64,000 bases of DNA from Nitrospinaceae bacterium UBA7883 (GCA_002500605.1 DLRR01000002.1:74299-138298); one strand, 5' to 3'; positions 27,806 through 61,031 are shown, numbered from the stretch's first letter. Made by a program: numbers and translations. The notes: a model not told the origin generated them from the sequence alone.

Positions 27806-28303
27806 ATGAAAAAAGAGATAAATGCAGCCGATGTTAAGTTGATGACAGAACTGCAAGGAAGCATACCCATGAGCAAAAGACCATTCAAAGAAATTGCCAA
27901 TAAATTAAAGATGACTGAGGATGAAGTTGTCGAAAAAGTTCAGAGTTACGGAAATAAGAAGTATTATCGGAGGTTTGGTGCCACACTCCGCCATCAGAAA
28001 GCTGGGTTTAAAGCAAATGGCATGGTGATATGGTCTGTGCCAGATGAGAGCATGCGTACCAAGATAGGCGAGCGACTTGCATCGCACCGGGAAGTAAGCC
28101 ACGGATATGAGCGGCCATCGTTTGATGAATGGCCATACCACATATACACCATGGTTCATGGTGAAACAGAAGCTGAGGTTAGGGGAATCGCAAAACAGAT
28201 GTCTGCCGAAGTAGGAATTACAGACTACGACGTACTTTTCTCTACCCGCGAGTTCAAAAAAACCAGTATGCGGTATTTCGATAACTGGCCAGTATGCGAA
28301 TAG
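27806..28303 (+). CDS. Siroheme decarboxylase subunit (AhbB/NirD-L-G-H family)
   Basis: 165 aa paralog of the preceding gene ('KLMTELQGSIPMSKRPFKEIANKLKMTEDEVVEKV'). Confidence 0.7.
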   Translation: MKKEINAADVKLMTELQGSIPMSKRPFKEIANKLKMTEDEVVEKVQSYGNKKYYRRFGATLRHQKAGFKANGMVIWSVPDESMRTKIGERLASHREVSHGYERPSFDEWPYHIYTMVHGETEAEVRGIAKQMSAEVGITDYDVLFSTREFKKTSMRYFDNWPVCE

Positions 28304-37240: not shown

Positions 37241-38101
37241 ATGGAAAAAACTATTCTTGCGCATGGCAAAGTTAATCTCTACTTGAAGGTAACCGGTAAA
37301 AGGAGTGATGGATACCATTTATTACGCTCATTTTTCCATAAAATCTCTTTGTGTGATGAGTTAACTTTTTTTCCAACAAAAGCAAACAAGATAACCATAA
37401 AATGCAGCGACCCAAATGTCCCTCTCGATGAGTCAAACTTAGCAGTAAAAGCGGCTAAAGCCTTAGCAAAGATTACTGGTTGCAATAGAGGGGTTCTTAT
37501 AAACATTGTCAAACATATACCTATAGGTAGTGGACTGGGTGGTGGATCATCCAATGCAGCAGCAACGTTGCTGGCATTAAATAATTTATGGAAAACTAAG
37601 GTTAGACATGAGGATCTATTGAAAATTGCCCTAAATCTTGGAGCAGATGTTCCTTTTTTCACTAGCAATTATTCAGCGGCATGGATAGAAGGAATAGGCG
37701 AGGTTATCCTACCCGTATCTGTAAATTCCTCATTGAATATGGTACTGTTTAAACCTGATTTTCCCATATCCTCAAGTACAGCTTTTACCAACTCAAAGTT
37801 TAATTTTGTTAGTGGTCCAAACGGCAAAACTTTAATAGAAAAACTTAGTGGAGGAGATCCTTTCATTGTCGGAGCTACCATGCAAAACGACCTTCAGCCA
37901 TGGGCTTTTGATTGTTACCGAGAACTGGCTGAGTTAAAAACTTCGATTTTACGTGGCAATACCAAACCAATTGCCGTAACAATGACTGGGAGCGGGTCAA
38001 CATTAATGGCTTTATATGAAAATAGTGAAGCTTCCAATAAAGCATATAAAGAATTGTCCAATATATCTAAGTTTGTAAAGGTTGTGACAACTTTGGCATG
38101 A
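37241..38101 (+). CDS. ispE: 4-diphosphocytidyl-2-C-methyl-D-erythritol kinase
   Basis: 'GKVNLYLKV' and the GHMP kinase motif 'PIGSGLGGGSSNAAA'. Confidence 0.85.
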   Translation: MEKTILAHGKVNLYLKVTGKRSDGYHLLRSFFHKISLCDELTFFPTKANKITIKCSDPNVPLDESNLAVKAAKALAKITGCNRGVLINIVKHIPIGSGLGGGSSNAAATLLALNNLWKTKVRHEDLLKIALNLGADVPFFTSNYSAAWIEGIGEVILPVSVNSSLNMVLFKPDFPISSSTAFTNSKFNFVSGPNGKTLIEKLSGGDPFIVGATMQNDLQPWAFDCYRELAELKTSILRGNTKPIAVTMTGSGSTLMALYENSEASNKAYKELSNISKFVKVVTTLA

Positions 38102-38390
38102 GTTTTAGCTTTCAGTGAAAATAGTGATTTTACCGTCGGTTATTTTCTTGTCGATTGCAATCCAAACGCACTAAAAACCTTTCGAGCATCTCATCATTGA
38201 AAGTAATTTAGTAATAAATGTTGTTGGTTTAAATGGTTGTTTAGTTAACTCCAATGGTTGTATCATTACTACTATAGACTTTAATCCCAAATGGGGGAGG
38301 AAACTCTTAAACCAATCAAAGTAAAATTAAACCTCAACTGAGGTTTAAGAAAATGCTCCAAAATAAACAAATTTAAATCTTGAGAGTCAG

Positions 38391-39554
38391 TTGATTTTTT
38401 CCGATTTTTTCAATGTAAACGAAAAGCTTGTATTCAGACTTTCCCTAGATCTGAATACGGAGCAATTTACTTGTCATGTAAAAAAAATTAAGAATAAGTT
38501 CATGGCTGTTTTGATCTCCAGACGAGACAAACCAAAAATTAGCCCCTCAATTGGTGACGAGTTGTTTATTTACCACAAAAACGACAATTGTAATCATGTT
38601 ATTCAGACCAAAATCGCCCAAAACAAACAATTTCCACTACTTACTTTATTTATGACCGAGTTATACGACCCAATAGTTGGAATTGAAGGTGCGGAACTGC
38701 CAGCAAGCTCCAGTTTAATAGAGAATATTTCAAATGATCATATAGGAGACAAAATAATTGGAGTGAATGAACACATCACTCATTTAGATTTTGCCACGGA
38801 AGAAAGTGAACTGAACGAAATTATAAAAGAGCAGTCGGATACGGACAGCGCGATTACTGGTGAGCCCAAAACAAGCCTAGCTTGGGAAGAAGCTGAGGAG
38901 GAACCTTTGGTGCTGGACACAGGTTTAAATGACAAATGGAAAGCTCAATCAAAATTGTCGCCAGATGCCACGAGTTTAAAGGATCACTTTGGGTTCAATT
39001 ATTTTCTTATTTCTGACGAGACCAGGAAAAGAATAAATAAAGTTATTACGGATTATGGCTCAGCTGATGGAGATTCCAGCGAATGCATCAACGACCCAAA
39101 AAACCCAGAGTTTGGTGAGCAAACTGACCTATTCTTGGTGGAAAAAGTTAGAGGAATAGATGCTAGGTTAACAAAACTGGAAAACATTGCCAGCGCAATT
39201 TTTAGCTATCACGCTGCGCAAGAGAACCTTACCACAGATCAAATTGTGTCAAGCTCTTTTGCTCGACCTGATAATGCTATTTGCCTTTCAATAGACAGCT
39301 TAGGGATTACTGCGGCTATTCAAGAACCAATTCCTAACCGCTCCACCGCTTTACTGTCTGTCGACCGGTTCTGGGATCCGCCGCTTCATTTTACCGCAGT
39401 TGCCGAAACAGAAGAGTCAAAAGAATGCGAGAACAACCTGTTCATTTGTCGGTTTTGCTTTGTTGCCATAAATTCAGATGACCAAATGTCCATAGACAAC
39501 TATTTGGCTCGATGGTCGGAATTTCTAGAAAAAATCACCAAAAGCAGGCAATGA
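38391..39554 (+). CDS. Hypothetical protein, possible PilZ-like N-terminal domain
   Basis: 387 aa. The N-terminal ~100 aa has a beta-rich PilZ-like pattern. This is followed by an acidic linker and a C-terminal domain with a 'CRFCF' motif. No clear family. Confidence 0.4.
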   Translation: MIFSDFFNVNEKLVFRLSLDLNTEQFTCHVKKIKNKFMAVLISRRDKPKISPSIGDELFIYHKNDNCNHVIQTKIAQNKQFPLLTLFMTELYDPIVGIEGAELPASSSLIENISNDHIGDKIIGVNEHITHLDFATEESELNEIIKEQSDTDSAITGEPKTSLAWEEAEEEPLVLDTGLNDKWKAQSKLSPDATSLKDHFGFNYFLISDETRKRINKVITDYGSADGDSSECINDPKNPEFGEQTDLFLVEKVRGIDARLTKLENIASAIFSYHAAQENLTTDQIVSSSFARPDNAICLSIDSLGITAAIQEPIPNRSTALLSVDRFWDPPLHFTAVAETEESKECENNLFICRFCFVAINSDDQMSIDNYLARWSEFLEKITKSRQ

Positions 39555-39750
39555 ACCTAACTAAAGTAAATGGGAAAATTCCGCGTAAAATAAAACATCA
39601 CATTAGGCAGTGAACAGAAATGTTCAAGGCAAAGCGCCAAAAGTATAAAGTATTATTTCGTTGACCAGTCAACAGACTTTCTGTTATTCTCATTCCCCAA
39701 ATATTTAAAAATCAAAATGTTAGCTTTAATGATTGGGTGGCTCCTTTTAA

Positions 39751-40392
39751 ATGGGCGATTTAAAAAACCAGATTTTTCTCGAACAAATTAACGTTGCGTT
39801 AGACGAAGTCCGCGATGAATATACTTCCAAGCACACTGTTAAAAAACAAAACCGCTTTTTGATCAAAGATATAACTTATGAAATTAGCAGATGTGATGTA
39901 GACAGCGAGACTTTTACCTACAATATAAGCTCTAAAATTCCAAACGAGTTAGTGCCGAAAAACTACAAAGCAAAAAATTATTATAATTTTATCGCTAAGC
40001 TGTTAAACAAATCACCAATAAAGCCAGCGATAAATAAAATGGAAAGCGTTGTACAAAATTCACGCGATATGGAATATAAGGAGCGGGAGTATGCCAAATT
40101 CACATACCGATTTAAAGAACATGAGCTCTATAACAACGAAGAGCTGAAAAAGTGTCTGGAAGGTTATCACTCAAAAAAATTCCCATTACCTAGCCTTCCT
40201 GGGATTTCTACGCTAAGCGGGAGGATGGTTTTAGTTTTGGTTAGAAAAAACATCACAGAATACGCAAAACGGAACATTTCAGATCTGATAAATGCCAACG
40301 AAAAGATGAAAATAGAACTTTCAAAAAAAAGGATCGCAAAAAAATCTTCCATTAAAAAGTCCTCGACCAAAAAACCCAGCGCTAAGAAATAA
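39751..40392 (+). CDS. Hypothetical protein with lysine-rich (histone H1-like) C-terminal tail
   Basis: 213 aa. The C-terminus is 'KKRIAKKSSIKKSSTKKPSAKK'. Its stop abuts the prfB start codon. Confidence 0.4.
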   Translation: MGDLKNQIFLEQINVALDEVRDEYTSKHTVKKQNRFLIKDITYEISRCDVDSETFTYNISSKIPNELVPKNYKAKNYYNFIAKLLNKSPIKPAINKMESVVQNSRDMEYKEREYAKFTYRFKEHELYNNEELKKCLEGYHSKKFPLPSLPGISTLSGRMVLVLVRKNITEYAKRNISDLINANEKMKIELSKKRIAKKSSIKKSSTKKPSAKK

Positions 40393-41518
40393 ATGAACGA
40401 AGAATTCAGATCGCTACTGGCGTCAACCAAAGCCAGGTTAGACAGGCTCCGAGGTCATCTTTGACCTAACCAAAAGAGAAAAAGAGCTTGCTAGACTCGA
40501 AGAAAAAATAGCCTCTCCTAATTTCTGGAACGACCCGGAAGCAACAAAGCCTTTGATGAAACGTCGGTCTTATCTTGCAAAAAGTATTGAAGAGTTTGGG
40601 CATCTGAAAAAGTCTCTTGACGATATAACCGATTTGGCCTTTTTGCTGGAAAAAGATAGCGATGAAGAACTGGAGAATGAAGCGGCATCCGAGTTGGGAC
40701 TTTTAGCAGATAAAATTAATAATGCAGAACTTGCCGCCATGCTTTCCGGTGAGCATGACGAGAACAATGCCATAGTTGAAATCCATCCTGGCGCTGGTGG
40801 TACAGAATCACAAGATTGGGCTGAGATGTTGATGCGCATGTACCTTCGCTGGTGTGAAAGACGCGAATACAAAACTGAAATCATTAACATCCTCTACGGC
40901 GAAGAAGCAGGTATTAAATCAGTTACTTTTATAGTGAACGGAAATTATTGCTATGGTTATTTAAAGGCTGAGTCAGGTGTTCATCGTTTAGTACGCATTT
41001 CCCCGTTTGACACTAACAAAAGAAGGCATACGTCGTTTGCATCAGTCACAATAACCCCAGAAATATCAGATGATATTGAAGTAAATATACGTGATGAAGA
41101 ATTAAAAATTGACACTTTCCGCTCTTCAGGTGCCGGCGGGCAACATGTAAACGTGACCGATTCTGCCGTTCGAATTACCCACCTTCCAACGGGTACAATT
41201 GTTGCCTGCCAGAACGAGCGAAGCCAACATAAAAACAAAGCTCATGCTATGAAAGTGCTAAAAGGAAAGCTTTTTTCTATCGAACAGCAGAAATTGCAAG
41301 ACAAGGTCGAAGGACTAACTGGTGAAAAGAAGGATATTAAGTGGGGGTCACAGATACGCTCCTACGTAATGCAGCCATATCAACTGGTCAAAGATCTTCG
41401 TACTAGGATAGAAAATGGCAATATTGGTGCCGTACTTGATGGTGACATAGATCAGTTTATTACCGGTTACCTACTCAAAGGGCCAGTAGATGGCGCAGTA
41501 GATGACAGTACTGAATAA
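40393..41518 (+). CDS. prfB: Peptide chain release factor 2, requires programmed +1 ribosomal frameshift at CTT TGA C (40459-40465)
   Basis: The short 23-codon frame-0 ORF 'MNEEFRSLLASTKARLDRLRGHL*' ends at the in-frame TGA (40462-40464). It is preceded by an SD-like GAGGT 3 nt upstream of the CTT. The +1 frame continues as 'DLTKREKELARLEEKIASPNFWNDPE...' into the RF2 body with the SPF and GGQ motifs. Confidence 0.85.
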
Positions 41519-41570: not shown

Positions 41571-41966
41571 TTAAAGAATGTTTGCTAGTGTGGCGTTTTC
41601 GAAAGGGGACATGAACCCCCTTCGGGCTTCGTATAAAATTTTCATTAGCTTACAACCACCAATGATTGGACAAGTGTTGTTTTCCCTGTCGAAGCACTCC
41701 GCAAGGTTCATGTGCTGTTCAGTATTGTAAATAACGTCTGCTAAAATAATATCTTCCGGTTCTCTGGAAAGGCGAATTCCACCAGATTTTCCCCTAACCG
41801 TTGCAATAAAATCATTTCTTGAAAGGTTATTAATTACTTTTGTCATGTGGTTTCGTGACACATTGTGAAATTCTGCTATTTCAGAAATCGTAACAAGGCG
41901 ATCTTTGTGACCTGCAATGTACAAAAGTGCCCTTAACGAATAGTCTGTGTAAGAGGTCATTTTCAT
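41571..41966 (-). CDS. Rrf2-family transcriptional regulator (NsrR/IscR-like, three Cys cluster ligands)
   Basis: Rrf2 HTH 'TISEIAEFHNVSRNHMTKVINNLSRNDFI' and a C-terminal 'C..5..C..5..C' ('ECFDRENNTCPIIGGC'). Confidence 0.8.
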   Translation of the reverse strand: MKMTSYTDYSLRALLYIAGHKDRLVTISEIAEFHNVSRNHMTKVINNLSRNDFIATVRGKSGGIRLSREPEDIILADVIYNTEQHMNLAECFDRENNTCPIIGGCKLMKILYEARRGFMSPFENATLANIL

Positions 41967-42107
41967 GTACTTAATAATAACATTATAAGATGCATATAAT
42001 CTACATATTTAAACAAAAACGACTTCTTTTTTTGGATTGTTAAGCAGAAAATAACCTTAAATACAACTTGATTTTAAATTTTTATACGCAGATAATGTGG
42101 GTCAACT

Positions 42108-42130
42108 AATATGTATTTAGTATGCATCTT
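42108..42130. promoter_or_regulatory. NsrR-type 11-1-11 inverted-repeat operator (AATATGTATTTAGTATGCATCTT)
   Basis: The match to the enterobacterial NsrR consensus AAGATGCATTT-N-AAATGCATCTT was read directly. It overlaps the -40..-16 region of the oxidase-like operon, whose ATG is at 42146. Confidence 0.5.
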
Positions 42131-42145
42131 TTAAGGGGGGAGCGT

Positions 42146-42664
42146 ATGCAAGAAATTGCTTGGAGTATTACCTTGTGGCTAACGATAATCTTAGCCGTTA
42201 CATATCTTTATGTTGCGATGAAATCGGGGGACGCTGCTGACGCATCAAGCGTTGCAGGTGCAGCCGGATCTTTAAGAACCTGGCTATTTGCGATGCTGGC
42301 ATTTGCCTTTGTGCCAGTGACCCTGATGACCACAGCTGATTTACCATACGGCGCAGGGGCATCTACTGGTAAAGCTCAGGTAGTTAATGTTAAAGGATTC
42401 CAATGGTATTGGGAAATGGACCAAGAAGAAGTAAAGGCTGGTATACCAGTGCTTTTCAAGGTCGAGGCTGCAGATGTTAATCATGGCTTTGCCATTTACG
42501 ATGAAGACAATGTTTTGATTACACAAACACAGGCTATGCCAGGTTACACAAACAACTTAAAAGTTACTTTTACTAAGCCAGGGACCTACAAGTTTCTATG
42601 TCTTGAATACTGCGGCAGGCAGCACCACGCCATGGAAATTACCCTGAATGTTACTTCTAATTAA
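42146..42664 (+). CDS. Heme-copper oxidase subunit II-like cupredoxin with CuA site
   Basis: TM helix plus cupredoxin domain: 'GFQWYWE', 'H' in 'VNHGF', and 'CLEYCGRQHHAM' (CxExCGxxHxxM CuA ligands). Start chosen at the ATG with an upstream AAGGGGGG SD. Confidence 0.7.
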   Translation: MQEIAWSITLWLTIILAVTYLYVAMKSGDAADASSVAGAAGSLRTWLFAMLAFAFVPVTLMTTADLPYGAGASTGKAQVVNVKGFQWYWEMDQEEVKAGIPVLFKVEAADVNHGFAIYDEDNVLITQTQAMPGYTNNLKVTFTKPGTYKFLCLEYCGRQHHAMEITLNVTSN

Positions 42665-42678
42665 GGGGGATAGAAATA

Positions 42679-44130
42679 ATGAGTAACGATATTTCTGCGG
42701 GCGGCCGGCTGACGGTAGTTATATACCAAGCTGTCGCAGCGGTAGTTTTGCTTTTGCTTATGACTTTTGGTCTATTGATGCGTTATTCACAGGCTGGTGG
42801 ACTAGATTTATCAGAAGATCTTTTCTATCAGCTTATGACGGCCCATGGTATCGGCATGGTGGGCATTGCCGCCATTTGCGGTGTTTCTATCATGTGGTTC
42901 TTTTTAAGCCAATATGTTCAATTAACAACTGAAATATTCGTCCTAAACCTCATCCTCTTTCTAGTGGGTGTGGTGATGATATTAAGTGCAATATTCCTCG
43001 GGGGATTTGCTGGTGCTTGGACTTTCCTCTATCCGCTTCCACGTATTTCTGGTGGTGCTTGGGGGCCGTCAATGGCAGCGTTGCACTTAGGAGGAGTACT
43101 GCTTATTGGTGTGGGGTTTCTTTTGGTTCATCTTGATTGCGGTTATGCAATTCTTAAGAAATACGGCTCATTGACTAATGCGCTTGGTTGGCCTACCCTT
43201 TTCGGTGGCCCTCAAACAGGCAAGTTTCAACATCAAGTTGACGAAGCAACACCGCCTCCAACAGTAGTGGCCTCGACCATGGTTACGATTGTGAATATTT
43301 TAGGCCTAGTTTCTGGGGCTTCAATACTTGTCATCACCATAGTTAACCTGTTTGTCCCAAGTTTTGCTATATCAGCTTTGCTGGGAAAAAACATGATCTT
43401 TTTCTTTGGGCACGTTTTCATTAACGCCACAATATACATGGCAGTAATAGCGGTGTATGAGATCTTACCCCGTTACACAGGTCGCCCTTGGAAATCTTCT
43501 AGGCCATTCCTGGCAGCTTGGTCTTTCTCAACTGTAGCTGTCTTAATTGTTTATCCCCATCACCTTTTGATGGATTTCCCAATGCCGGTATGGATGCTGG
43601 TCATGGGACAAGTAATCTCCTATTTGAGTGGTATCCCCATACTAGTGGTCACTGCCCTAGGCGCTCTTGCTTATGTGCACCGTTCTGGTATTAAGTGGGG
43701 CATGGCTCCGAGTTTACTTTTTCTAGCTACGTTTGGCTGGGCTGCGGGCGCCATTCCTGCTATCGTTGATGGAACCATTGTGGTTAATTCAGTTTTACAT
43801 AACACCCTATGGGTGCCAGGTCACTTTCATACATACTTACTTCTAGGGTTGGTACCAATGGCCCTTGGTTTTATGTATTTTTTAATTGAGGAAGAAGGAT
43901 CTACAATAGACCTTGCAGCCTTTTGGGCATTTATTATAGGCGGGATGGGATTCACCATGACCTTTTTGATGGCCGGAGCAGCGAGCGTTCCACGCCGCTT
44001 TGCTGAGCATCAGCCGTGGATGCAAGGGATGGACACCTTAGGATCCGCTTTTGCAGCTTTGGCAATTTTAGGTGTAGCCCTCATTGCAGTTCGATTTCTT
44101 GGAGGGGTTTTGGCGTCACTCAAAGCTTAA
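42679..44130 (+). CDS. Heme-copper oxidase superfamily subunit I (NOR-like: six His ligands present, no helix-VI cross-link Tyr)
   Basis: 12-TM protein. His ligands at 'TAHGIGM', 'FGHVFIN', 'PHHLLM' and 'GHFHTY'. The canonical GHPEVY tyrosine is replaced, giving GHVFIN. Confidence 0.75.
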   Translation: MSNDISAGGRLTVVIYQAVAAVVLLLLMTFGLLMRYSQAGGLDLSEDLFYQLMTAHGIGMVGIAAICGVSIMWFFLSQYVQLTTEIFVLNLILFLVGVVMILSAIFLGGFAGAWTFLYPLPRISGGAWGPSMAALHLGGVLLIGVGFLLVHLDCGYAILKKYGSLTNALGWPTLFGGPQTGKFQHQVDEATPPPTVVASTMVTIVNILGLVSGASILVITIVNLFVPSFAISALLGKNMIFFFGHVFINATIYMAVIAVYEILPRYTGRPWKSSRPFLAAWSFSTVAVLIVYPHHLLMDFPMPVWMLVMGQVISYLSGIPILVVTALGALAYVHRSGIKWGMAPSLLFLATFGWAAGAIPAIVDGTIVVNSVLHNTLWVPGHFHTYLLLGLVPMALGFMYFLIEEEGSTIDLAAFWAFIIGGMGFTMTFLMAGAASVPRRFAEHQPWMQGMDTLGSAFAALAILGVALIAVRFLGGVLASLKA

Positions 44131-44136
44131 TGGTTA

Positions 44137-44727
44137 ATGCGTAATGCCTTTCTGATTATTGCACTGCTTTGTGTTGGGTTTTTAGCACTTGGCAAAGGAA
44201 CGGACGGGTACACTGTCCTAACATCGGAAGGGAGTCGACGCACAGCTGTTGCAAAACATCCAGTTGTGATCCCCCCCATCCTGCTAAGGGATCGGGGGGG
44301 ATCATTTTTTAAGATCAATGATTATAGGGAAGGGCCAACCCTAGTTGAATTTATTTATACAGGTTGTCAGACTACCTGCGTGGAACTTGGTAATGCTTTC
44401 GAGGAAATTTCAGATAGTTTGTCAAAGAGCATGAAAGTTCGCTTGGTTAGCATAAGCATTGACCCAACAGATCAACTTGAAGATCTTCAGCGGTACGCTG
44501 AACGATTCAATATACCATCCCACTTGTGGAAAGTTGCTAAAGTTAAAAATCGTAAAGATACTACTTCACTCCTGAATACATTTGGCATAATTGCCATTCC
44601 AGATGGCTATGGCGGATATGAGCACAATGCTGCCATTCATATTGTCGATAGATCGGGAAAGTTAATAAGCATTGTTGACCACGAAGTAGCTCTACTTGCT
44701 CTTACAGCAATGCAAGGGGATCAATGA
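44137..44727 (+). CDS. SCO1/SenC-family copper chaperone (thioredoxin fold, CxxxC)
   Basis: Signal/TM anchor, then 'FIYTGCQTTCVELG' with the CxxxC motif and a downstream His. Confidence 0.7.
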   Translation: MRNAFLIIALLCVGFLALGKGTDGYTVLTSEGSRRTAVAKHPVVIPPILLRDRGGSFFKINDYREGPTLVEFIYTGCQTTCVELGNAFEEISDSLSKSMKVRLVSISIDPTDQLEDLQRYAERFNIPSHLWKVAKVKNRKDTTSLLNTFGIIAIPDGYGGYEHNAAIHIVDRSGKLISIVDHEVALLALTAMQGDQ

Positions 44728-45272
44728 AATACGGGGTTATTTTGTGGGGATTTCTGGCGTTACCCTCAATGCGTTATTACCTCGAGCTTAACTTAACAAC
44801 TCACATGCTAGTGCAAATCCCACTCCTGGTTACGTCTGGTTGGTTGGTTGGGAGAAAGCTAACTAGCTCGTATTTCGAAAAAATTAACAGAAACGGTATT
44901 CCAGGGCTACTTGTTGGACTATTCACTCTTTTGTTTTGGATGATTCCCCGCTGGCTTGATGCATCACTAACAAATCCATTTTGGGAAGCGGTTAAATTTA
45001 TAACAATTCCTGGATTAGTGGGAGTTCCATTGGGGGCTAGCTGGTTTTTGCTCAAACCAATTGCCCGTGGTTTTGTCTGGGCAAACGGAATTTCAATGCT
45101 TTTGATTCTAGGATGGCTGTATTTAGAGGCGCCGATGCGGGTATGTAACAACTACCTTGTAAACCAACAAGAGTACTTCGCTTACAATACTTTTGGAATA
45201 GCTATTGCGATCGCCGTCTACTGGGTATCCGTAGCTTTCTATGGCGACTGGAAAAATGCAGGGAAAAGGTAG
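44724..45272 (+). CDS. Hypothetical 5-TM membrane protein (operon partner of oxidase-like genes)
   Basis: Hydrophobic 182 aa, translationally coupled to the SCO1-like gene by a 4-nt overlap. No family recognised. Confidence 0.4.
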   Translation: MKYGVILWGFLALPSMRYYLELNLTTHMLVQIPLLVTSGWLVGRKLTSSYFEKINRNGIPGLLVGLFTLLFWMIPRWLDASLTNPFWEAVKFITIPGLVGVPLGASWFLLKPIARGFVWANGISMLLILGWLYLEAPMRVCNNYLVNQQEYFAYNTFGIAIAIAVYWVSVAFYGDWKNAGKR

Positions 45273-45405
45273 GGTGCAGATTAACTAGAATGTTGGTAAA
45301 ACCATTCTTTATCAACCAAGTGCCGTTATCGAAGTAGCGATGGAGTTCGCATTCAATTGTTGTAATGGGTATCAAAAGAAAATAGAACTAACTGGAGTTT
45401 AAAAG

Positions 45406-46179
45406 ATGTATAGCAACACAATTGACCAGTTGTCTGAACTGGCATCCAAAAAAGCCATGCTGATTCGTAGATCACCATTAGGCTTCTTTATTGGTTCCAT
45501 GATGGCTGGTGCCTATGTCGGTTTTGGGATCATCCTTGTATTTAGTATTGCAGCCGGGCTGGATCCTAGCGTACAAAAACCTGCTATGGGAGTGAGCTTT
45601 GGCGTTGCTCTAACACTAGTAGTCTTTGCAGGAGCTGAGCTCTTCACAGGTCACACCATGTATATGACATTGGGGTGGCTTACCAAACAAACTAGCGCAA
45701 AAGATCTTGCGGCAAGTTGGTCTTTAACTTGGTTGGGCAACCTTGCGGGAGCATTTACTCTTGCATTTATTTTCTACCTTGGTGGCGGCGGGGTTCTATT
45801 GAATGCTGGAAGTGACCTTCTGTATGGTATTACTGATGCCAAGATGAATGGTTCTGCTATTTCTCTTCTGGCAAAAGGAATTCTGTGTAACTGGCTTGTT
45901 TGTCTTGCCCTTTGGATGGCGGCCAGGACTACTAATGACACAGCTAAATGCATTGTAATATTCTGGGCGCTTTACGCTTTTATTGCCTCAGGATTTGAAC
46001 ACAGTGTAGCTAATATGACCCTTTTCTGTATTGCACTACTCGGCAATCATCCTGAAACAATCAGCATTGCAGGCATGGGACACAACCTTCTATGGGTTAC
46101 TATTGGGAATATCATTAGCGGTTCTCTTTTTATGGCTACCGCTTACTGGTACGCAACAATAGCTCCGGCAAAAAGTTAG
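45406..46179 (+). CDS. Formate/nitrite transporter (FNT) family channel
   Basis: 257 aa, 6 TM, with FNT signature regions ('LFTGHTMYMTLGW', 'GFEHSVANM'). Confidence 0.85.
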   Translation: MYSNTIDQLSELASKKAMLIRRSPLGFFIGSMMAGAYVGFGIILVFSIAAGLDPSVQKPAMGVSFGVALTLVVFAGAELFTGHTMYMTLGWLTKQTSAKDLAASWSLTWLGNLAGAFTLAFIFYLGGGGVLLNAGSDLLYGITDAKMNGSAISLLAKGILCNWLVCLALWMAARTTNDTAKCIVIFWALYAFIASGFEHSVANMTLFCIALLGNHPETISIAGMGHNLLWVTIGNIISGSLFMATAYWYATIAPAKS

Positions 46180-47410: not shown

Positions 47411-47872
47411 TCAGCGATAAGACGAACCACCGTAATGTTTGCCCGGTCTAGACCTTTCGTTACCCCTTCTGCCCTCACCAATAAACGAGCCGCCCATCCG
47501 CTCTTGCATTTTCTTCTTTTGCTCTGGGGTAAGTATTTGGCTGATCTTAACTTGAGAGCGCAATCTATGGGTTGCCATCTCTGCCTCAATTTCCGCTATC
47601 TCTTTGATCAGCTTATCCAGTTTGGCGCTGTTCGGCTTTTCGTTTTGAAGCTCGTCATGGAAATCAACCCGTTTAAGGTCCAACTCGCTCTTTGTTTTAA
47701 TCCTGTGCCTATACATTTCTTTGCGAACAGATCGCATCTTATCCATCTGTTCTGAGCTTAGGTTTAGCTCTTTAATCATACTCTGACCCGAAGGCCCTCT
47801 TTGCCCCCGCTCGGCCACGGCCGTGACCGGAATCATCATGGAAAACGCTAAGATTATTGCCAGTTTACGCAT
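47411..47872 (-). CDS. Periplasmic Spy/CpxP-family (LTxxQ) stress protein
   Basis: Signal peptide, 'LNLSSEQMDKM' and 'ILTPEQKKKM' LTxxQ-type motifs, and a charged C-terminus. Confidence 0.6.
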   Translation of the reverse strand: MRKLAIILAFSMMIPVTAVAERGQRGPSGQSMIKELNLSSEQMDKMRSVRKEMYRHRIKTKSELDLKRVDFHDELQNEKPNSAKLDKLIKEIAEIEAEMATHRLRSQVKISQILTPEQKKKMQERMGGSFIGEGRRGNERSRPGKHYGGSSYR

Positions 47873-48317
47873 TTTTACCTCCATTTATCCAGTAAATCTC
47901 CATGAGGTTTGAGGATACAAAGTCGTTCACTTCTTCCTCTTCGTGAGATAACTGGACGTTATTATCCAAGTTGTAATTGAAGACGGTATCGATGGTTTCG
48001 CGTATAAATTTTTCTGTGTTTGTCGTCATTACCGCTTCTAATTGCTCATTCCCTTGGCGAATCACGGTCGTCACGTTTAGATTTACATAGACCATGGCAA
48101 TTAGTGCAGCAGCCGTTAATGGCAAAAAGATCTTTCTGGCGATAATCACCTGCCATATATAATCTATTATCGTAGGCTGAACCTCTTCTGGTTTGTACTC
48201 CTGTGGTGTAGTAGCCACAGCCTTTACCACATTTTTTTGCAGCGAATCTGGTGGTTGTAGTCTTTTGATAGTATTGATTATGCCGTCAACATCCATGTCT
48301 GCATTCCTCCATATCAA
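47865..48317 (-). CDS. Putative membrane-anchored anti-sigma factor
   Basis: 150 aa with a single central TM helix. It overlaps the 3' end of the ECF sigma gene, which is the typical sigma/anti-sigma arrangement. No conserved motif recognised. Confidence 0.4.
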   Translation of the reverse strand: MIWRNADMDVDGIINTIKRLQPPDSLQKNVVKAVATTPQEYKPEEVQPTIIDYIWQVIIARKIFLPLTAAALIAMVYVNLNVTTVIRQGNEQLEAVMTTNTEKFIRETIDTVFNYNLDNNVQLSHEEEEVNDFVSSNLMEIYWINGGKNA

Positions 48318-48891
48318 TTGCCACTTTTTTTAAGTCATCCTTTGCCCTTGAAATTCGTGATCGCACAGTACCAATAGGAGTCAGCGTAACCTCAGAAATA
48401 TCTTCATAACTCAAGCCTTCTATTTCACGTAAAATAATTGCTATTCTTCTCTCCGGCACAAGATGTGAGAGAATTTTGGCCAATGTTTTCTCAGCATCCA
48501 TAATATTTATCGCCTCTTCAGGGTTTTCATTCGCCAACAAATGATTCTCAATGTTCTTCAACATTTTTTCATCTGAATATTGAAGTTCAAAGCGGTTTGA
48601 CTTTATCCAGTTAAGTGTTTTATTTACTACAATTCTGTATAACCATGTGCGAAAGGCTGATCTTCCTTCAAACTTTGGAAGTGCGATCCAAACTGAAACA
48701 AATACATCTTGGGAAATATCCTCGGCTATGTCTGAGTTATATGTCATTCTATATGTTACATTCCAAACGAAACTCTCGTACCGGTCGAATAGCCCTGCAA
48801 ATGCCTTCTGGTCGCCTGAAGCGGCCATTTTAACTAGCTGAGCATCGCTTATTTTTTCCACCATGTCTGCTAAAGTGTCTTTCCTGTTCAT
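48286..48891 (-). CDS. ECF (group IV) sigma-70 family sigma factor
   Basis: Region 2 'DIAEDISQDVFVSVWIALPKFEGRSAFRTWLYRIVVNKTLNWI' and region 4 HTH 'LSYEDISEVTLTPIGTVRSRISRAKDDL'. The start is uncertain (ATG at 48891, or GTG at 48924). Confidence 0.8.
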   Translation of the reverse strand: MNRKDTLADMVEKISDAQLVKMAASGDQKAFAGLFDRYESFVWNVTYRMTYNSDIAEDISQDVFVSVWIALPKFEGRSAFRTWLYRIVVNKTLNWIKSNRFELQYSDEKMLKNIENHLLANENPEEAINIMDAEKTLAKILSHLVPERRIAIILREIEGLSYEDISEVTLTPIGTVRSRISRAKDDLKKVAIDMEECRHGC

Positions 48892-49224
48892 TCCAGTGGT
48901 CATATAAATGGTCGATGTGTTCACATGCTATAAACCGTAGAACATTTGGAATGCAGACCACCTGAATTTATTAACATTTTGGCTTTTACCATCCCTTACC
49001 AGTTATTGCATGGTACCCCAATTCCCCGAAAAGTCTGAAACCACAGCAAAAATTCAGTCGCTACTATCAATTTACCTATTCATACTACTAATGGTAAAAA
49101 CCATTTATTTTGTTTTGTGTTAAATATATGACAATATAGAATCAAAAAAGTTCCCGCCTCATCAATATTTATGTGAAAAGAGAAGAGAATATAATCAAGT
49201 TAAACCAAGAGCAGAGAACCAAGT

Positions 49225-50022
49225 ATGAGTAAAACTGCCAACTTAAAAACCAAGCTTAGAGCATGGCTATACACAAGGTTTCCCTTTCTTGCTCATAAAG
49301 CGGCAGCCAAAATTAGGCCATTTTCGTTTGAAAATACTCCTTGGGCACCTATCGTCAAACCGTTGTCTGAGATCAAAGTATCCATTGTTACCACTTCAGG
49401 TGTGCATTTAAACAGCGATTTGCCCTTTAACATGGAAGATGAGACTGGAGATCCATCATACAGAATAGTTCCATCTGACGCTGACATATCCACGCTTACT
49501 ATTACACACAATTACTACAACCATTCTGACGCCGATCGAGACATCAACATAGTATTCCCCATTGAACGAATGCGCGAATATGTAGACGAAGGCCGGATAG
49601 GTTCACTGGCTAACCAGCATTATGGGATGATGGGACATATTCGGGAGAACCACTTGGGTGAGTACATGAATAAATGGTTGCCAGAAGTCGCAAAAATGAT
49701 GAAAGAAGACAGCGTTGATTGTGCCTTAATCACCCCTGGTTGAGGTTTGTGCAACCGGTCCGGAGGATTGGCACAAAGGGTTTTGGAAGCAAACGGTATC
49801 GCAACAGTTGGGATCTCAATAGAAAAAAAATTTACTGAAGAGGTAAAACCACCTCGCACGGTTTTCCTCAAATGGCCCTACGGGCATCCTTTGGGAGAAC
49901 CGGGTGCTATAAAACAACAGAGGGCAGTACTAGATGTGGCCTTCAGGATGCTGGAAACATGTGAAACTCCTGGAGAAATCATCGAACCAGGATATGCGTG
50001 GAAACGCCACAAATACGAGTAA
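49225..50022 (+). CDS. Candidate selenoprotein, GrdB/PrdB (glycine/D-proline reductase protein B)-like; in-frame TGA(Sec) at 49741-49743
   Basis: Two ORFs in the same frame are separated only by a TGA. Read-through gives '...CALITPG-U-GLCNRSGG...', a UxxC redox motif. A SECIS-like hairpin (TTTGTGC...GCACAAA, 49746-49777) lies immediately 3' of the TGA. Both halves look coding. Confidence 0.5.
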
Positions 50023-53019: not shown

Positions 53020-53293
53020 CTCACACCCGCACTTCCTAAGAGTACGGCAAGGGTAATCAGCAAAGTAATCGCTGTGCGTCTCATAAAAATAAGTTTAGCA
53101 GGTTATGGTAATGTGAGAAATAATTCATTATCGAACAAACAGATACAATTAAATAAATTTTCCAAACGTATTTATTCATGATAGCTTTTACCATATAAGT
53201 TTTAATGCTTAGATTTAGGACACCCTTACTTTGTCACCTAGTTCACTGAAAAGATGGAATAAAATAAACCCCAATATAAGAAAAAATGTGGCA

Positions 53294-54076
53294 ATGCTTG
53301 AATGTAAACTTCCATTGGTTTGGGTTGTGGTAGCTTTCTGTATTCTGATTAGTGATGTACAACATTCTTTTGCTGGATCTATTAAAGCAGCAGTTTCCTC
53401 TAACTTTCTTGCACCAATGGCAAAAATAGCAATCGAGTTTGAGAAAGAAAGCGGTAATAAGGTTTTAATCAGTTCCGGCTCCACAGGGCAATTGTACGCA
53501 CAAATTATCCATGGTGCACCGTTTGACATTTTTTTTGCGGGGGATGCTGCAAGACCCGAAAAACTGGTTGGGCTTGGAGTGGCTTATGGAGATTCAAAAT
53601 CGTACGCTTTCGGTAAATTAGCTTTGCTGTGTGTTGCCAGAGAAATAGAATGTACCCTTGATTCAATTAAGCAAGGTAAATTTAAGAAATTGGCGTTAGC
53701 AAACCCTTTACTAGCCCCTTATGGTGTAGCGGCAAAACAAGTTTTGCAAGTGGTGGGCAAAAGAAAAGCACACTTCAACCGACTTGTCTACGGGCAGAAT
53801 ATTTCTCAAACCATGCAATTTGTGATTTCAGGAACTGTGGCGGCAGGGTTTGTAGCCGTATCCGACTTAAAAAAAGTGGAAAAAACATTACCCAGTTCAT
53901 TTTTGATAGTTGACCAACAACTTTATGACCCCATTGACCAACAAATGGTTGTTATCAAAAACCAAAAGAACATCATAGAGGCAAGAGCACTAGCTAATTT
54001 CGTTACCAGTAAAAAGGGTCGTGCAATCATCAAGTCATTTGGATACGATTTACCAAAACAAAAGCTTTTAAAATAA
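53294..54076 (+). CDS. modA: Molybdate ABC transporter substrate-binding protein
   Basis: Signal peptide, then 'SSGSTGQLYAQIIHGAPFDIFFAGD'. The start was set at the ATG that begins the signal peptide (the track ORF starts at 53231). Confidence 0.8.
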   Translation: MLECKLPLVWVVVAFCILISDVQHSFAGSIKAAVSSNFLAPMAKIAIEFEKESGNKVLISSGSTGQLYAQIIHGAPFDIFFAGDAARPEKLVGLGVAYGDSKSYAFGKLALLCVAREIECTLDSIKQGKFKKLALANPLLAPYGVAAKQVLQVVGKRKAHFNRLVYGQNISQTMQFVISGTVAAGFVAVSDLKKVEKTLPSSFLIVDQQLYDPIDQQMVVIKNQKNIIEARALANFVTSKKGRAIIKSFGYDLPKQKLLK

Positions 54077-54094
54077 TATTACCTAGGTCAAGCT

Positions 54095-54772
54095 GTGGAA
54101 CTTTTTCAAAGCCCTCTCTGGATAACTATAAAGCTTGCTACTATTTCAACTTTCATCCTGCTTTTGATTTCTACACCAATGGCTTGGTGGTTATCGCGTG
54201 ACAAGGGAAAGTTTAAAGCTGTAGTGGAATCTGTTGTAGCTATACCTTTGGTGTTACCACCAACTGTATTGGGATTCTACCTTCTCATTGCATTAAGCCC
54301 AAATGGGTTTTTAGGAGCTCCCTTGGAAGCATTAGGAATAGGGTCGCTTGCTTTTACATTTGAGGGATTGCTAATTGGGTCAATAATTTACTCGTTGGCA
54401 TTCGTAGTAAGACCGCTGCAGAACTCCTTTGAATCGGTAAACGACGAACTTTTGGAAGCGGCTGCAACTCTTGGTGCCTCTCCTCTGGACAGGTTTTTCT
54501 CAATTGCCGTGCCGTTATCCATACCTGGTTTTCTCACGGCTACTGCCCTTGGGTTTGCTCATACAGTTGGAGAGTTTGGAGTTGCACTTATGATTGGCGG
54601 CAACATCCCTGGTGAAACAAGAGTTATGTCAATTGAGATATTTAACCTAGTTGAAGCCTTAAATTATGACCAGGCACACTTTTACTCTGCAGGGTTAATG
54701 ATATTTTCTTTTTTACTCCTATTCTTAGTGTCAATGATCAACTTTAACTCAAGTTCAAAAAACCCGTTATGA
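54095..54772 (+). CDS. modB: Molybdate ABC transporter permease
   Basis: ABC TM permease with the EAA-like motif 'EAAATLGASPLDRFF'. Confidence 0.85.
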   Translation: MELFQSPLWITIKLATISTFILLLISTPMAWWLSRDKGKFKAVVESVVAIPLVLPPTVLGFYLLIALSPNGFLGAPLEALGIGSLAFTFEGLLIGSIIYSLAFVVRPLQNSFESVNDELLEAAATLGASPLDRFFSIAVPLSIPGFLTATALGFAHTVGEFGVALMIGGNIPGETRVMSIEIFNLVEALNYDQAHFYSAGLMIFSFLLLFLVSMINFNSSSKNPL

Positions 54773-55881
54773 ATGTACTTCCATCCAATGGAGAAACTCC
54801 TGAAGGACTCTATGCACAGTTTACCCATATGCGGGGGACGTTTAGCATAGAAGCCACCCTTGAAGCACCACAGAGTGGTGTCACCGCTCTGTTTGGCCCT
54901 TCTGGTTGCGGCAAAACAACTTTCCTGCGTCTTTTGTGCGGTGTTGACAGGGCTAAAGTGGGAAAAGTTTGTGTTAACGGAATGTGGTGGCAAAACAGAT
55001 CTTTTTTCCTGCAGACGTGGAAACGCCCTGTTGGAGTAGTTTTTCAAGACTCCAGACTTTTTCCACATCTTACAGTCAAAAACAATCTTGAATATGGTGC
55101 AAAAAGATCTTTTGCTAGTAAACGCACAAACGGTTATAGGGTAAATTATGATCACACAGTTTCTTGGTTAGGATTGGAGAGACTGCTCGACAGATTTCCT
55201 AATGGCCTTTCTGGCGGAGAAAAACAGCGTGTAGCACTGGGCAGAGCAATCCTTCGTAATCCAAGTCTTTTGTTGCTTGATGAGCCAATGGCTTCTCTAG
55301 ATGAAAGTTCGAAAATAGAGATTATTCCTTACTTAGAAGAGCTACGATCAGAGTTGAGCATACCTATTTTATATATTAGCCATGACATATACGAAATTCA
55401 TAGGATTGCTGACCGGGTTGCTCTTATGGAAAAAGGGTCCCTATTAACTAGCGGAGATATCAAAACAATCCTCACATCTCTAGAACTTCCGATTAGCAGG
55501 GGTAGCCATGCAGGGGCAGTAATAAATGCAGATGTTGTTGAGCATGACAAAGAATTTAATCTTTCTATCTTAGAATTCGAAGGCGGTAAAATCAGCGTCG
55601 CCAGAGGCGGCATGACTATTGGGAAAAATGTAAAGCTAAGAATAAACGCATCAGATGTTGCACTGGCATTAGATAAACCACGTAATACCAGCGTGCTTAA
55701 CGTCTTTGGCGTTAAAGTAACAGGCATTGTTGAAATTAACGAGTCACAGGTGATAGTTAAGCTCGACGCACATGGTGTAGCGATGCTATCAAAAATTACA
55801 AAAAAGTCCTTGGATGCACTTAGCATTAAGAGAGGCGACAAATGCTACGCAATGGTGAAAAGTGTGGCACTAATGGCCTAA
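54769..55881 (+). CDS. modC: Molybdate ABC transporter ATP-binding protein with C-terminal TOBE/Mop domain
   Basis: Walker A 'GPSGCGKTT', signature 'LSGGEKQRV', Walker B 'LLLDEP', and a C-terminal Mop-like ~140 aa. Confidence 0.85.
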   Translation: MNVLPSNGETPEGLYAQFTHMRGTFSIEATLEAPQSGVTALFGPSGCGKTTFLRLLCGVDRAKVGKVCVNGMWWQNRSFFLQTWKRPVGVVFQDSRLFPHLTVKNNLEYGAKRSFASKRTNGYRVNYDHTVSWLGLERLLDRFPNGLSGGEKQRVALGRAILRNPSLLLLDEPMASLDESSKIEIIPYLEELRSELSIPILYISHDIYEIHRIADRVALMEKGSLLTSGDIKTILTSLELPISRGSHAGAVINADVVEHDKEFNLSILEFEGGKISVARGGMTIGKNVKLRINASDVALALDKPRNTSVLNVFGVKVTGIVEINESQVIVKLDAHGVAMLSKITKKSLDALSIKRGDKCYAMVKSVALMA

Positions 55882-59135: not shown

Positions 59136-59936
59136 TTAATAGAACAGCAAGCTAGAACGAGTCACAAGACCCAAGTCTTCGGCAGACCTTAGAAAATAAG
59201 TCAACCCTTCTATTTGTTCATGCCCTAAATCGAAAAAAATTTTAGTTGTGAGGTAATCTAAGAACTTTTCCGATGTGATTCCCGCTGCATAAGTTGCATT
59301 ACTCTCCTGTCTAGCAATCAGGTCCAAATTTGCTAAACCTGTCTCCTTAGCTTTCACTAGTGCTTCAACAGCACTATCCCACCTCTCTCCCTTCTTTGCA
59401 CAAAGCACAGCATGGGTAAAAGAGCGTCTTGTATGTTGGTACCATAACTCCCCTAAGTCGTAAACAGCGTATCTTCTTCGGTCGATTCGAAAAGCTTCAT
59501 CGCCTATCACCAACCCGGCATCAGCTGAATTTAGCATCAATTCGGGTTTCTCTTCCCCAGTTTTGATTGATAAGCTTTTCCCCCATTTTTCGTGGAAAAG
59601 GACTTCTAGCATGGAAACCGACGTTCGTGATTTAGGATCGACAGAAACCGTCTCTATGTTCTCTATTTCTATCTTGCTGAACAGCAGCACAGTATCCACC
59701 CTGCCTAAGGAGGCAATGCATATTTGTGGGATGATCACTGCTTCTTCTATACGTGCATATTCGACGGAGGGAATCATGGCAATATCCAACTCACCCGATG
59801 AAAATCTATCTGCCAAGCGTGACGGTGAATCAATGATTAGTTCGAATGGTGTTTCCACCAACCCGTGCAGTATTGGATTTATAATTGGCTTCGAATTAAG
59901 GAAATCGTGAATACCCACACGCGGTCGCATTGGCAT
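59136..59936 (-). CDS. mqnA: Chorismate dehydratase MqnA (futalosine pathway, VitK2_biosynth/PBP fold)
   Basis: 'RVGIHDFLNSKPI' start typical of MqnA/MqnD-family proteins. 266 aa. Confidence 0.65.
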   Translation of the reverse strand: MPMRPRVGIHDFLNSKPIINPILHGLVETPFELIIDSPSRLADRFSSGELDIAMIPSVEYARIEEAVIIPQICIASLGRVDTVLLFSKIEIENIETVSVDPKSRTSVSMLEVLFHEKWGKSLSIKTGEEKPELMLNSADAGLVIGDEAFRIDRRRYAVYDLGELWYQHTRRSFTHAVLCAKKGERWDSAVEALVKAKETGLANLDLIARQESNATYAAGITSEKFLDYLTTKIFFDLGHEQIEGLTYFLRSAEDLGLVTRSSLLFY

Positions 59937-59942
59937 TTTCTA

Positions 59943-61031
59943 TTATACAATACCAACGACATTGTACACAGTGTCTCGTTCCACTGGACTCCTTCCTGCT
60001 TCATGAACCAGTTCCTCCAGTCTTTGTTTAGTGAGACCTTGGTTGGTAGTGGCTCCAGCTGCATGGGTGATTTTCTCCTCTACTACGGTACCGTCCAAAT
60101 CATCAGCACCGAACGAAAGTGAAATTTGTGCCAGTTTTTCTCCAGTCATTATCCAAAACGCTTTTATATGCGGAAAATTATCAAGCATCAGTCTAGACAT
60201 CGCGATCATTTTAAGATCCATTACGCCAGATGTCCTTCCTATTTCCTCATACGCAGTATTCCTTGGGTGAAATGCCAAAGGGATGAATGTTAGAAATCCT
60301 CCCGAACGGTCTTGGGCTTCTCGTAAAAGTAATAGGTGGTCCACGCGGTCCTCAGCAGATTCTATATGCCCATAAAGCATGGTTGCATTTGTATTGAGAC
60401 CTATATCATGAGCAGTTTTATGAACTGCAAGCCACTCTTTTCCATCAATTTTTTCAGGGCAAATCTTTTTCCGTACCCGATTGCTGAATATTTCTGCTCC
60501 ACCACCAGGCAGAGAGCCAAGCCCAGCATTTTTTAGCTCTTCAAGCACCACTCGTGTCGATTTTCCGGATATCATGCTTAAGTGAACTATCTCAACAGCA
60601 GTAAAGGCTTGCAAGTGAACATTAGGAAATTCACCACGAAGGCTGCTAATCATTTCAACGTAGTAACTATAGGGTAAGGTTGGATGTAATCCGCCTACAA
60701 TATGAAATTCGGAGAAATTTTCTCCATCATGCATATGGGCTTCCTCTAACACCTTATCGATCATCATGGTATATGCATCATCGTCTTCTGCTTTACGGCT
60801 AAATGCACAGAATTTGCACGAGTTCACACATACATTGGTGTGGTTTATATGGCGGTTGGAAATGAAGTAAGCAGCGGAACCATTTATCCGCTCCCGTACA
60901 ATGTTTGCAAGGTGCCCCACGCCTAGCAAATCAGCTGAATTATCTATCATCAGCCCATCTTCATAATCAAGACGGTTACCAGATTCTACCTTTTCGGCGA
61001 TTTTAATTAGATTATTGTCTGTAAACTTCAC
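59943..61031 (-). CDS. Radical SAM enzyme, MqnC/MqnE family (futalosine pathway)
   Basis: 'CVNSCKFCAF' CxxxCxxC cluster motif. 362 aa, adjacent to mqnA. Confidence 0.7.
   Translation of the reverse strand: MKFTDNNLIKIAEKVESGNRLDYEDGLMIDNSADLLGVGHLANIVRERINGSAAYFISNRHINHTNVCVNSCKFCAFSRKAEDDDAYTMMIDKVLEEAHMHDGENFSEFHIVGGLHPTLPYSYYVEMISSLRGEFPNVHLQAFTAVEIVHLSMISGKSTRVVLEELKNAGLGSLPGGGAEIFSNRVRKKICPEKIDGKEWLAVHKTAHDIGLNTNATMLYGHIESAEDRVDHLLLLREAQDRSGGFLTFIPLAFHPRNTAYEEIGRTSGVMDLKMIAMSRLMLDNFPHIKAFWIMTGEKLAQISLSFGADDLDGTVVEEKITHAAGATTNQGLTKQRLEELVHEAGRSPVERDTVYNVVGIV

Follow-up and report, generated by a model that had tools for sequence, protein, structure and literature searches.

The present analysis concerns a 64,000-nucleotide stretch of DNA listed under Nitrospinaceae bacterium UBA7883 (GCA_002500605.1, DLRR01000002.1:74299-138298; hereafter the window), which carries between positions 41571 and 46179 a gene for an Rrf2-family repressor and, divergently transcribed from it, genes for the two subunits of a heme-copper oxidase (HCO) superfamily enzyme, a copper chaperone and a membrane protein, followed by the gene of a formate/nitrite-family (FNT) channel. 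Judged from its genes, this is a typical norS-norY-senC-orf1 cluster of sNOR, an already named family of presumed nitric oxide (NO) reductases (NORs), and not a new type. The nsrR-like repressor gene (41571-41966, minus strand) encodes 131 amino acids (aa), or 129 aa from Met3 in the public gene calls (Pfam Rrf2, E 1e-32), and all other genes of the locus lie on the plus strand. Subunit II, NorS (42146-42664; 172 aa; Pfam COX2, NCBIfam CoxB-like), consists of a CuA cupredoxin domain and two N-terminal transmembrane (TM) helices. The heme-copper subunit I, NorY (42679-44130; 483 aa, 12 TM helices; Pfam COX1, E 5e-45), has an Asn replacing the cross-link Tyr. After a SenC/SCO1 copper chaperone with one N-terminal TM helix (44137-44727; 196 aa; Pfam SCO1-SenC) comes orf1 (44724-45272; 182 aa), the fourth gene of sNOR clusters, whose product is an all-helical membrane protein that reached the threshold of no Pfam family. 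The gaps between norS and norY and between norY and senC are 14 bp and 6 bp, respectively, and senC and orf1 overlap by 4 bp. The NirC-like channel gene (45406-46179; 257 aa; Pfam FNT, E 3e-65; NCBIfam NirC equivalog) follows on the same strand after a gap of 133 bp, in which no terminator-like site was found, and a Ca/Na antiporter gene lies downstream of it.

The six open reading frames (ORFs) described in the original prediction are real and their coordinates hold, the sole shift being the start of subunit II, which had been placed at 42122 and is most likely the ATG at 42146. The string ATGCAAGA, which follows a G-rich ribosome-binding site (RBS) at the norS start, is kept in four zetaproteobacterial relatives, the identical locus has a subunit II of 172 aa in public gene calls, and the ATG at 42122 falls within an operator palindrome (NsrR box 2, described below); we therefore adopted 42146 as the start of norS.

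The heme and CuB ligands of NorY (H56, H245, H294, H295, H382 and H384) are all present and invariant in 121 homologues. In the HMMER alignment, helix VI reads GHVFIN in NorY and GHPEVY in bovine COX1, which places N249 at the position of the cross-link residue Tyr244. N249 is invariant in the 121 homologues and in all 33 Asn-type representatives, and the earlier description of subunit I as Tyr-less is thus borne out. No conserved relocated cross-link Tyr was seen at the sequence level among the homologues; the residue adjoining the HH motif, Y292 in NorY, is Y, F, V or W across the representatives, and Y253, two helical turns away from H245, is replaced by L or F in part of the family. A conserved Glu in the K-channel region has been described as a feature of sNOR (PMC11214002); E261 of NorY (YEILP, where helix VI ends), a residue with a conservation of at least 90% that occurs throughout the query subclade, may correspond to it. 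The AF2 model of NorY (pLDDT 85) contained 12 long helices.

The residue at the Tyr position is diagnostic in this superfamily: O2 reductases carry Y, cNOR and qNOR carry E, sNOR and the Bacillus CuANOR (bNOR) carry N, eNOR carries Q and gNOR carries D (PMC8756737 Table A4, after Hemp and Gennis), and Asn is the active-site residue of sNOR and bNOR (PMC8756737, PMC3475470). All representatives at least 32% identical to NorY had Asn at this residue, and the more distant ones (27-32% identity) had GHPVVY. In a neighbour-joining tree the Asn-type and Tyr-type proteins, the latter being B-type oxidase representatives, were split in 50 of 50 bootstraps, and the query was located deep in the Asn-only group. 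The best full-length match to NorY, obtained by an exhaustive search of 1.84 billion representatives, was a 493-aa protein of Cytobacillus (51% identical). Cluster look-ups of the NorY representatives gave Cytobacillus, Ginsengibacter and a Methanomicrobiales metagenome-assembled genome (MAG), with no nitrifier among these; as the clade holds both Cytobacillus and proteobacterial Asn-type proteins, it lends the sNOR placement indirect support. The invariant Asn, the CuA subunit, the gene order, the 12-TM subunit I and the tree all fit sNOR, which is the basis of our assignment. Thus, the NOR-type placement proposed in the original prediction is supported, and what has to be given up is its novelty, since the norSY-senC-orf1 clusters, already named sNOR, have been known since 2007.

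The other families of the superfamily were ruled out by the same residues and by the partner subunits. A ba3-type (B-family) O2 reductase would have GHPxVY where NorY has GHVFIN, and the Tyr-type representatives form a separate group. Thermus thermophilus ba3 shares with the window the two-subunit CuA and heme-copper core and the same six His residues (Foldseek TM 0.73-0.76) but has the His-Tyr cross-link (GHPIVY), and its sequence similarity to NorY is very low (E ~1e-4). The Tyr position is Asn rather than the Gln of eNOR. In gNOR one CuB His is changed to Asp and subunit II is devoid of CuA ligands, whereas the window proteins have the three CuB His and a full CuA set. The Glu-ligated FeB enzymes cNOR and qNOR pair with a cytochrome c subunit or contain a fused quinol domain, whereas the partner here is a CuA cupredoxin; beyond the generic COX1 family, no NorB family match for subunit I was obtained in NCBIfam or Pfam. 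The enzyme bNOR (qCuANOR), for which electrogenic NO reduction is proven in Bacillus azotoformans, resembles the window in its CuA subunit and in the Asn at the Tyr position (PMC11214002, PMC3475470). It differs in having a subunit I of ~560 aa with 13 TM helices, a one-TM subunit II and an extra 46-aa subunit, and in being confined to Bacillales, and it was ruled out because NorY has 483 aa and 12 helices, NorS has two TM helices and the host is proteobacterial; no small ORF was noted between the cluster genes. The resemblance of bNOR to sNOR is stated to be convergent only (PMC11214002). The absence of a cytochrome c subunit and of subunit III, which had been put forward as an argument against a conventional cytochrome c oxidase, does not set the locus apart from B-type oxidases, since these are without both as well, and the real argument is the missing Tyr. 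Likewise, the earlier remark that CuA-bearing NOR families are largely uncharacterised is still valid for sNOR and is outdated for eNOR and bNOR, which have since been characterised biochemically (PMC11214002).

The partner proteins were compared across 64 related loci (~678 kb in total). NorS has the full set of CuA ligands (H113, C152, C156, H160 and M163), present in 60-61 of 62 related loci, together with its two N-terminal hydrophobic segments. The order subunit I-SenC-orf1 is kept in 59 of the 64 loci, which come from genomes of alpha-, beta-, gamma- and zetaproteobacteria, with senC after the subunit I gene and orf1 after senC, and the residues C77-x3-C81 and H163 of SenC are conserved in 59 of 59 loci. 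For orf1 we found 230 homologues, mostly of ~200 aa compared with 182 aa in the window, and all of the named ones are labelled 'hypothetical'; the product in the window is 56% identical to a protein of Ghiorsea bivora. Its AF2 model is all-helical (pLDDT 90) and had no match among solved structures in a fold search against the PDB. The family has an invariant motif, FWMIPRWLDASL, plus R139-x-C141-N142-x-Y144, and 17 of 40 members showed weak similarity to DUF1404. The motif FWxIPxxxDAxL is common to orf1 and a Caa3_CtaG protein, with an hhalign probability of 6.6%, which is not significant. The product of orf1 may act in assembly or may be an additional subunit.

The Rrf2 protein was described in the original prediction as NsrR-like with three Cys ligands, and we can confirm this: C91, C99 and C105 align with the [4Fe-4S] ligands of Streptomyces coelicolor NsrR (5N07, the best PDB match, over the full length), and the additional ligand Asp8 is also present. 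The Cys residues are spaced C-x7-C-x5-C. Of the 64 loci, 18 have an Rrf2 gene no more than 6 kb away from the sNOR cluster, and the four ligand residues are conserved in 17-18 of these 18 neighbouring genes. In Nitrosococcus oceani, too, an annotated nsrR (Noc2967) adjoins orf1-senC-norY-norS (Noc2967-2971; PMC3772326).

We searched the window for the 19-bp NsrR consensus gATGyAT-N5-ATrCATc, which has 14 specified positions (PMC1274295). The single best match in the 64 kb, box 2 (TATGTATTTAGTATGCATC, 42110-42128), has one mismatch (13 of the 14 positions), and the second best, box 1 (GATGCATATAATCTACATA, 41989-42007), has two (12 of 14); both fall in the 179-bp divergent spacer (41967-42145). 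Box 1 precedes the nsrR start codon by 22 bp and is probably an autoregulatory operator. Box 2 lies between the norS RBS and a sigma-70-like promoter candidate (TTGATT-17-GATAAT, 42068-42096, plus strand; 9 of 12 positions), which comes from a consensus scan only and does not in itself indicate function. The spacers of the window and of four zetaproteobacterial relatives align, the palindrome being at a fixed distance from the RBS in all five, and the relatives have TTGACA at the position aligned with the promoter candidate. A check of the spacer for sites of other Rrf2 regulators favoured NsrR as well: the best matches to an IscR type-1 site (9 of 25 positions mismatched) and to an IscR type-2 site (7 of 24) were rejected, and an exact RirA IRO box was not found. 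A third NsrR-like match, at 44958-44976 inside orf1, was rejected as an operator because it represents codons (GAT GCA TCA) of a conserved W-L-D-A-S-L motif; the orf1 of Neobacillus yields a similar match within the coding sequence.

The conservation of the operator was evaluated in the 64 related loci, the target region being 260 bp about the start of the subunit II gene (2.35% of the sequence). Of the boxes with at most two mismatches, 16 of 23, from 15 loci, fell into this region (binomial p ~2e-21, calculated against the whole locus sequence as background and uncorrected for the AT-richness of intergenic DNA), and of those with at most one mismatch 9 of 10 did so. The 15 loci with a box upstream of norS span zeta-, alpha- and gammaproteobacterial lineages, and composition alone can hardly account for boxes being enriched some forty-fold at a single defined position in several classes. 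The arrangement resembles the NsrR regulons of beta- and gammaproteobacteria, Bacillus and Streptomyces, in which a three-Cys Rrf2 repressor acts at 19-bp operators of NO-detoxification promoters (PMC1274295) and whose published members are hmp, hcp, dnrN, nirK and norB. In the searchable literature we found no published statement of norSY as an NsrR target, only co-listing of the genes.

The FNT channel of the window just reaches the cut-off of the NCBIfam NirC equivalog (293.6 bits vs 293). An FNT gene adjoins the cluster in 12 of the 64 loci, and in Neobacillus, and 10 of these 12 proteins are NirC-like and 49-61% identical to that of the window. The FNTs that follow the sNOR cluster in two zetaproteobacterial loci (L001, 3659-4393; L004, 3642-4253) and in Neobacillus belong to a different subtype (25-32% identical). 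The presence of channels of differing subtypes beside the cluster looks like independent recruitment, and such repeated recruitment suggests a functional tie of sNOR to a small anion, most plausibly nitrite. In the window, the FNT gene may be co-transcribed with norS-norY-senC-orf1.

The closest genomic relatives of subunit I, at 70-72% identity, are encoded in MAGs of Mariprofundaceae/Zetaproteobacteria, and the host is probably an iron-oxidising zetaproteobacterium. A public assembly collection lists an identical subunit I in 47 of its blocks, and the 24 blocks that were read contained 23 carrying contigs; the same gene neighbourhood accompanies it on JGI 3300022227 contig Ga0187827_10000042 (L065, 183 kb) and on L066. 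Because the identical subunit I and its neighbourhood recur in public assemblies, the source organism is regarded as a recurrent environmental population.

The four-gene order with a CuA subunit II is the same as in the sNOR clusters of Nitrosomonas europaea and N. eutropha, Nitrosococcus oceani (Noc2968-2971) and Nitrococcus (PMC3772326, PMC3764937, PMC6967387), and the nitrifier clusters also encode a subunit I of ~480 aa with the Tyr-to-Asn change, followed by SenC and the small membrane protein orf1. Unlike these hosts, the organism studied here is probably a zetaproteobacterial iron oxidiser and a non-nitrifier. In N. oceani nsrR is located beside the cluster, whereas in the window it is divergent and upstream, with two operator boxes, and the NirC-like channel gene is appended. 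Among Bacillaceae, the 'qCuANOR type II' of B. azotoformans (BAZO_04705-04710) matches the window in its shorter 12-TM subunit I, two-TM subunit II, Tyr-to-Asn change and linked SenC (Heylen and Keltjens, PMC3475470), and this organism has been counted as having qNOR, bNOR and sNOR (Murali et al., PMC11214002). In Neobacillus sp. CP133262.1 (L067, 3355-8665) the genes are arranged as COX2(172)-COX1(495)-SCO1-orf1-FNT, in the same order as in the window; the differences are that its FNT is 32% identical, that a heme A synthase (CtaA) gene comes after the cluster and that an upstream NsrR box is missing.

On these grounds we consider it probable that the locus is an NO-inducible operon for an sNOR-type heme-copper NO reductase. 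At low NO, a dimeric [4Fe-4S] form of the NsrR-like repressor, with its cluster held by C91, C99, C105 and Asp8, would sit on the two 19-bp palindromes, blocking norS-norY-senC-orf1 and probably also the FNT gene from box 2 and regulating its own gene from box 1. Damage of the Fe-S cluster by NO would lift the repression. A periplasmic carrier would then deliver electrons to the periplasmic CuA domain of NorS, from where they would reach first the low-spin heme of NorY, ligated by H56 and H384, and then the high-spin heme (H382) with CuB (H245, H294 and H295), and the reaction at this site would be 2 NO + 2 e- + 2 H+ -> N2O + H2O. Since Asn249 replaces the redox-active Tyr, four-electron reduction of O2 is not expected. 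SenC could serve in copper loading, and the NirC-like channel could allow the passage of nitrite across the inner membrane.

Several observations weigh against this reading. NO reductase activity has been shown for no sNOR, none having been purified or assayed (PMC11214002, PMC6967387), and the authors of the N. europaea work make a case for sNOR as a possible O2 reductase of high affinity (PMC6967387). The Foldseek search with the NorY model, which gave TM scores of 0.73-0.80 with HCO subunit I chains (A-type 0.80, ba3 0.73-0.76), confirms the HCO fold and leaves A- and B-type relatives unseparated. The assignment to sNOR itself was made by comparison with published descriptions of the enzymes of ammonia-oxidising bacteria. 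Alternatively, the enzyme might be a high-affinity or NO-tolerant terminal O2 reductase that is induced when NO poisons the main cbb3 oxidase. The sNOR family descended from B-type O2 reductases (PMC11214002), NorY keeps the three CuB-type His ligands and has no Glu-rich FeB site of the cNOR/qNOR kind, and in N. europaea norSY-senC was upregulated 2.7- to 10.8-fold under O2 limitation, for which an oxidase role was proposed (PMC6967387). NsrR control would suit an NO-resistant oxidase equally well, even if the finding of NsrR operators on the whole weakens the case for an O2 reductase. The active site also speaks against it, in that the cross-link Tyr for four-electron reduction of O2 is replaced by an invariant Asn, the nearby Tyr292 varies (Y, F, V or W) and no relocated Tyr is evident. 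In addition, bNOR reduces NO with an identical active site (PMC11214002). We thus regard an O2-reducing enzyme as rather unlikely.

The remaining objections concern the regulator and the channel. NCBIfam ranks NsrR at the top for the Rrf2 protein with 122.4 bits against a cut-off of 182, and RirA comes close with 114.8 bits, so that both scores are below the cut-off. The Cys spacing resembles that of RirA, and the organism carrying the locus probably oxidises Fe(II). These features would fit a RirA/IscR-like regulator of iron or Fe-S status and an operon responsive to iron availability. We find this highly improbable, as both operators conform to the NsrR consensus while the IscR matches are poor and an exact IRO box is missing, the best solved relative is NsrR, Asp8 is conserved, and norS is preceded by an NsrR box across many lineages. 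Two further points weigh against the main reading, namely the uncorrected background of the enrichment test and the Neobacillus cluster, which is without an NsrR box upstream. For the FNT gene itself, neither an NsrR box nor promoter evidence was found, the orf1-FNT gap being devoid of a box. A different chemistry, such as NO dismutation or peroxidase-like detoxification, with the FNT carrying another anion, e.g., formate or hydrosulfide, could also be imagined, given that the sNORs are biochemically uncharacterised, that HCO scaffolds have been proposed to act as NO dismutase and N2O reductase (PMC11214002), and that the FNTs beside sNOR clusters include different subtypes only 25-32% identical. 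Such a role seems very improbable to us because the active site is the same as in the proven NO reductase bNOR (PMC11214002), the FNT of the window reaches the NirC cut-off, and NsrR control points to NO.

The locus itself offers nothing categorically new, and its modest value lies in the conservation of the NsrR box across lineages and in the recurrent FNT linkage. The sNORs are an abundant NOR family, biochemically uncharacterised, that may add to environmental N2O (PMC11214002), and their true substrate is disputed (PMC6967387). The NsrR operators upstream of norS and the recurrent linkage to FNT genes are independent, regulation-based arguments, and both therefore favour a role of sNOR in NO or nitrite metabolism rather than in O2 reduction. 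The locus also places sNOR in probable Zetaproteobacteria, where the abiotic reaction of Fe(II) with nitrite could make NO stress plausible (compare PMC8114936). An extension of this reading, which we put forward as doubtful, is that sNOR functions here as an electrogenic, energy-conserving NO reductase fed by cytochromes in the periplasm that belong to the Fe(II)-oxidation chain; a microaerophilic zetaproteobacterium could in that case couple iron oxidation to the respiration of NO arising abiotically from nitrite and Fe(II). Under this doubtful reading, NsrR, sNOR and the nitrite channel would together form a portable module for NO and nitrite that is conserved in Proteobacteria and Bacillota alike.

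The remainder of the window is chromosomal housekeeping DNA. Further nitrogen-cycle genes were absent from it, with no norB, nirK, nirS or hmp among the 60 ORFs of at least 150 aa, and Rfam and tRNA scans of the window found nothing. Two groups of genes touch on heme and respiration. Tandem NirD/L-like siroheme decarboxylase genes of the AsnC type (27315-27788 and 27806-28303) point either to heme synthesis by the alternative route (AhbAB) or to heme d1 being made for a NirS whose gene lies elsewhere, and futalosine-pathway menaquinone genes at 59136-61031 (VitK2_biosynth/MqnD-like and radical-SAM MqnC-like) suggest a menaquinone-based respiratory chain.

Upstream of the ORF listed as prfB (40553-41518) we noted the programmed +1 frameshift site of RF2, CTT TGA C, at 40455-40466, with a GG-rich stretch before it. 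Because this site is upstream of the listed TTG start, the latter is an ORF-calling artefact and prfB starts further upstream. At 49225-50022, a GrdB-like ORF (Pfam GRDB, E 7e-12) stops at an in-frame TGA (49741-49743), after which the frame resumes as ORF 49747-50022. Read-through would give ...ITPG-U-GLC... with a UxxC motif, and the product is therefore likely to be a selenoprotein; the hairpin after the TGA was no more stable than shuffled sequence (z = 0.18).

The lowest GC content of the window (0.366) was measured at 38001-40400, between ispE-like and prfB genes, and two ORFs in this stretch (38391-39554 and 39751-40392, the second with a Lys/Ser-rich tail) had no Pfam match. Downstream of the Ca/Na antiporter gene, the minus strand (47411-48924) contains genes for an ECF sigma factor, a putative anti-sigma ORF without a Pfam match and a CpxP/Spy-like LTXXQ periplasmic protein, and a modABC-like transporter is encoded at 53231-55881.

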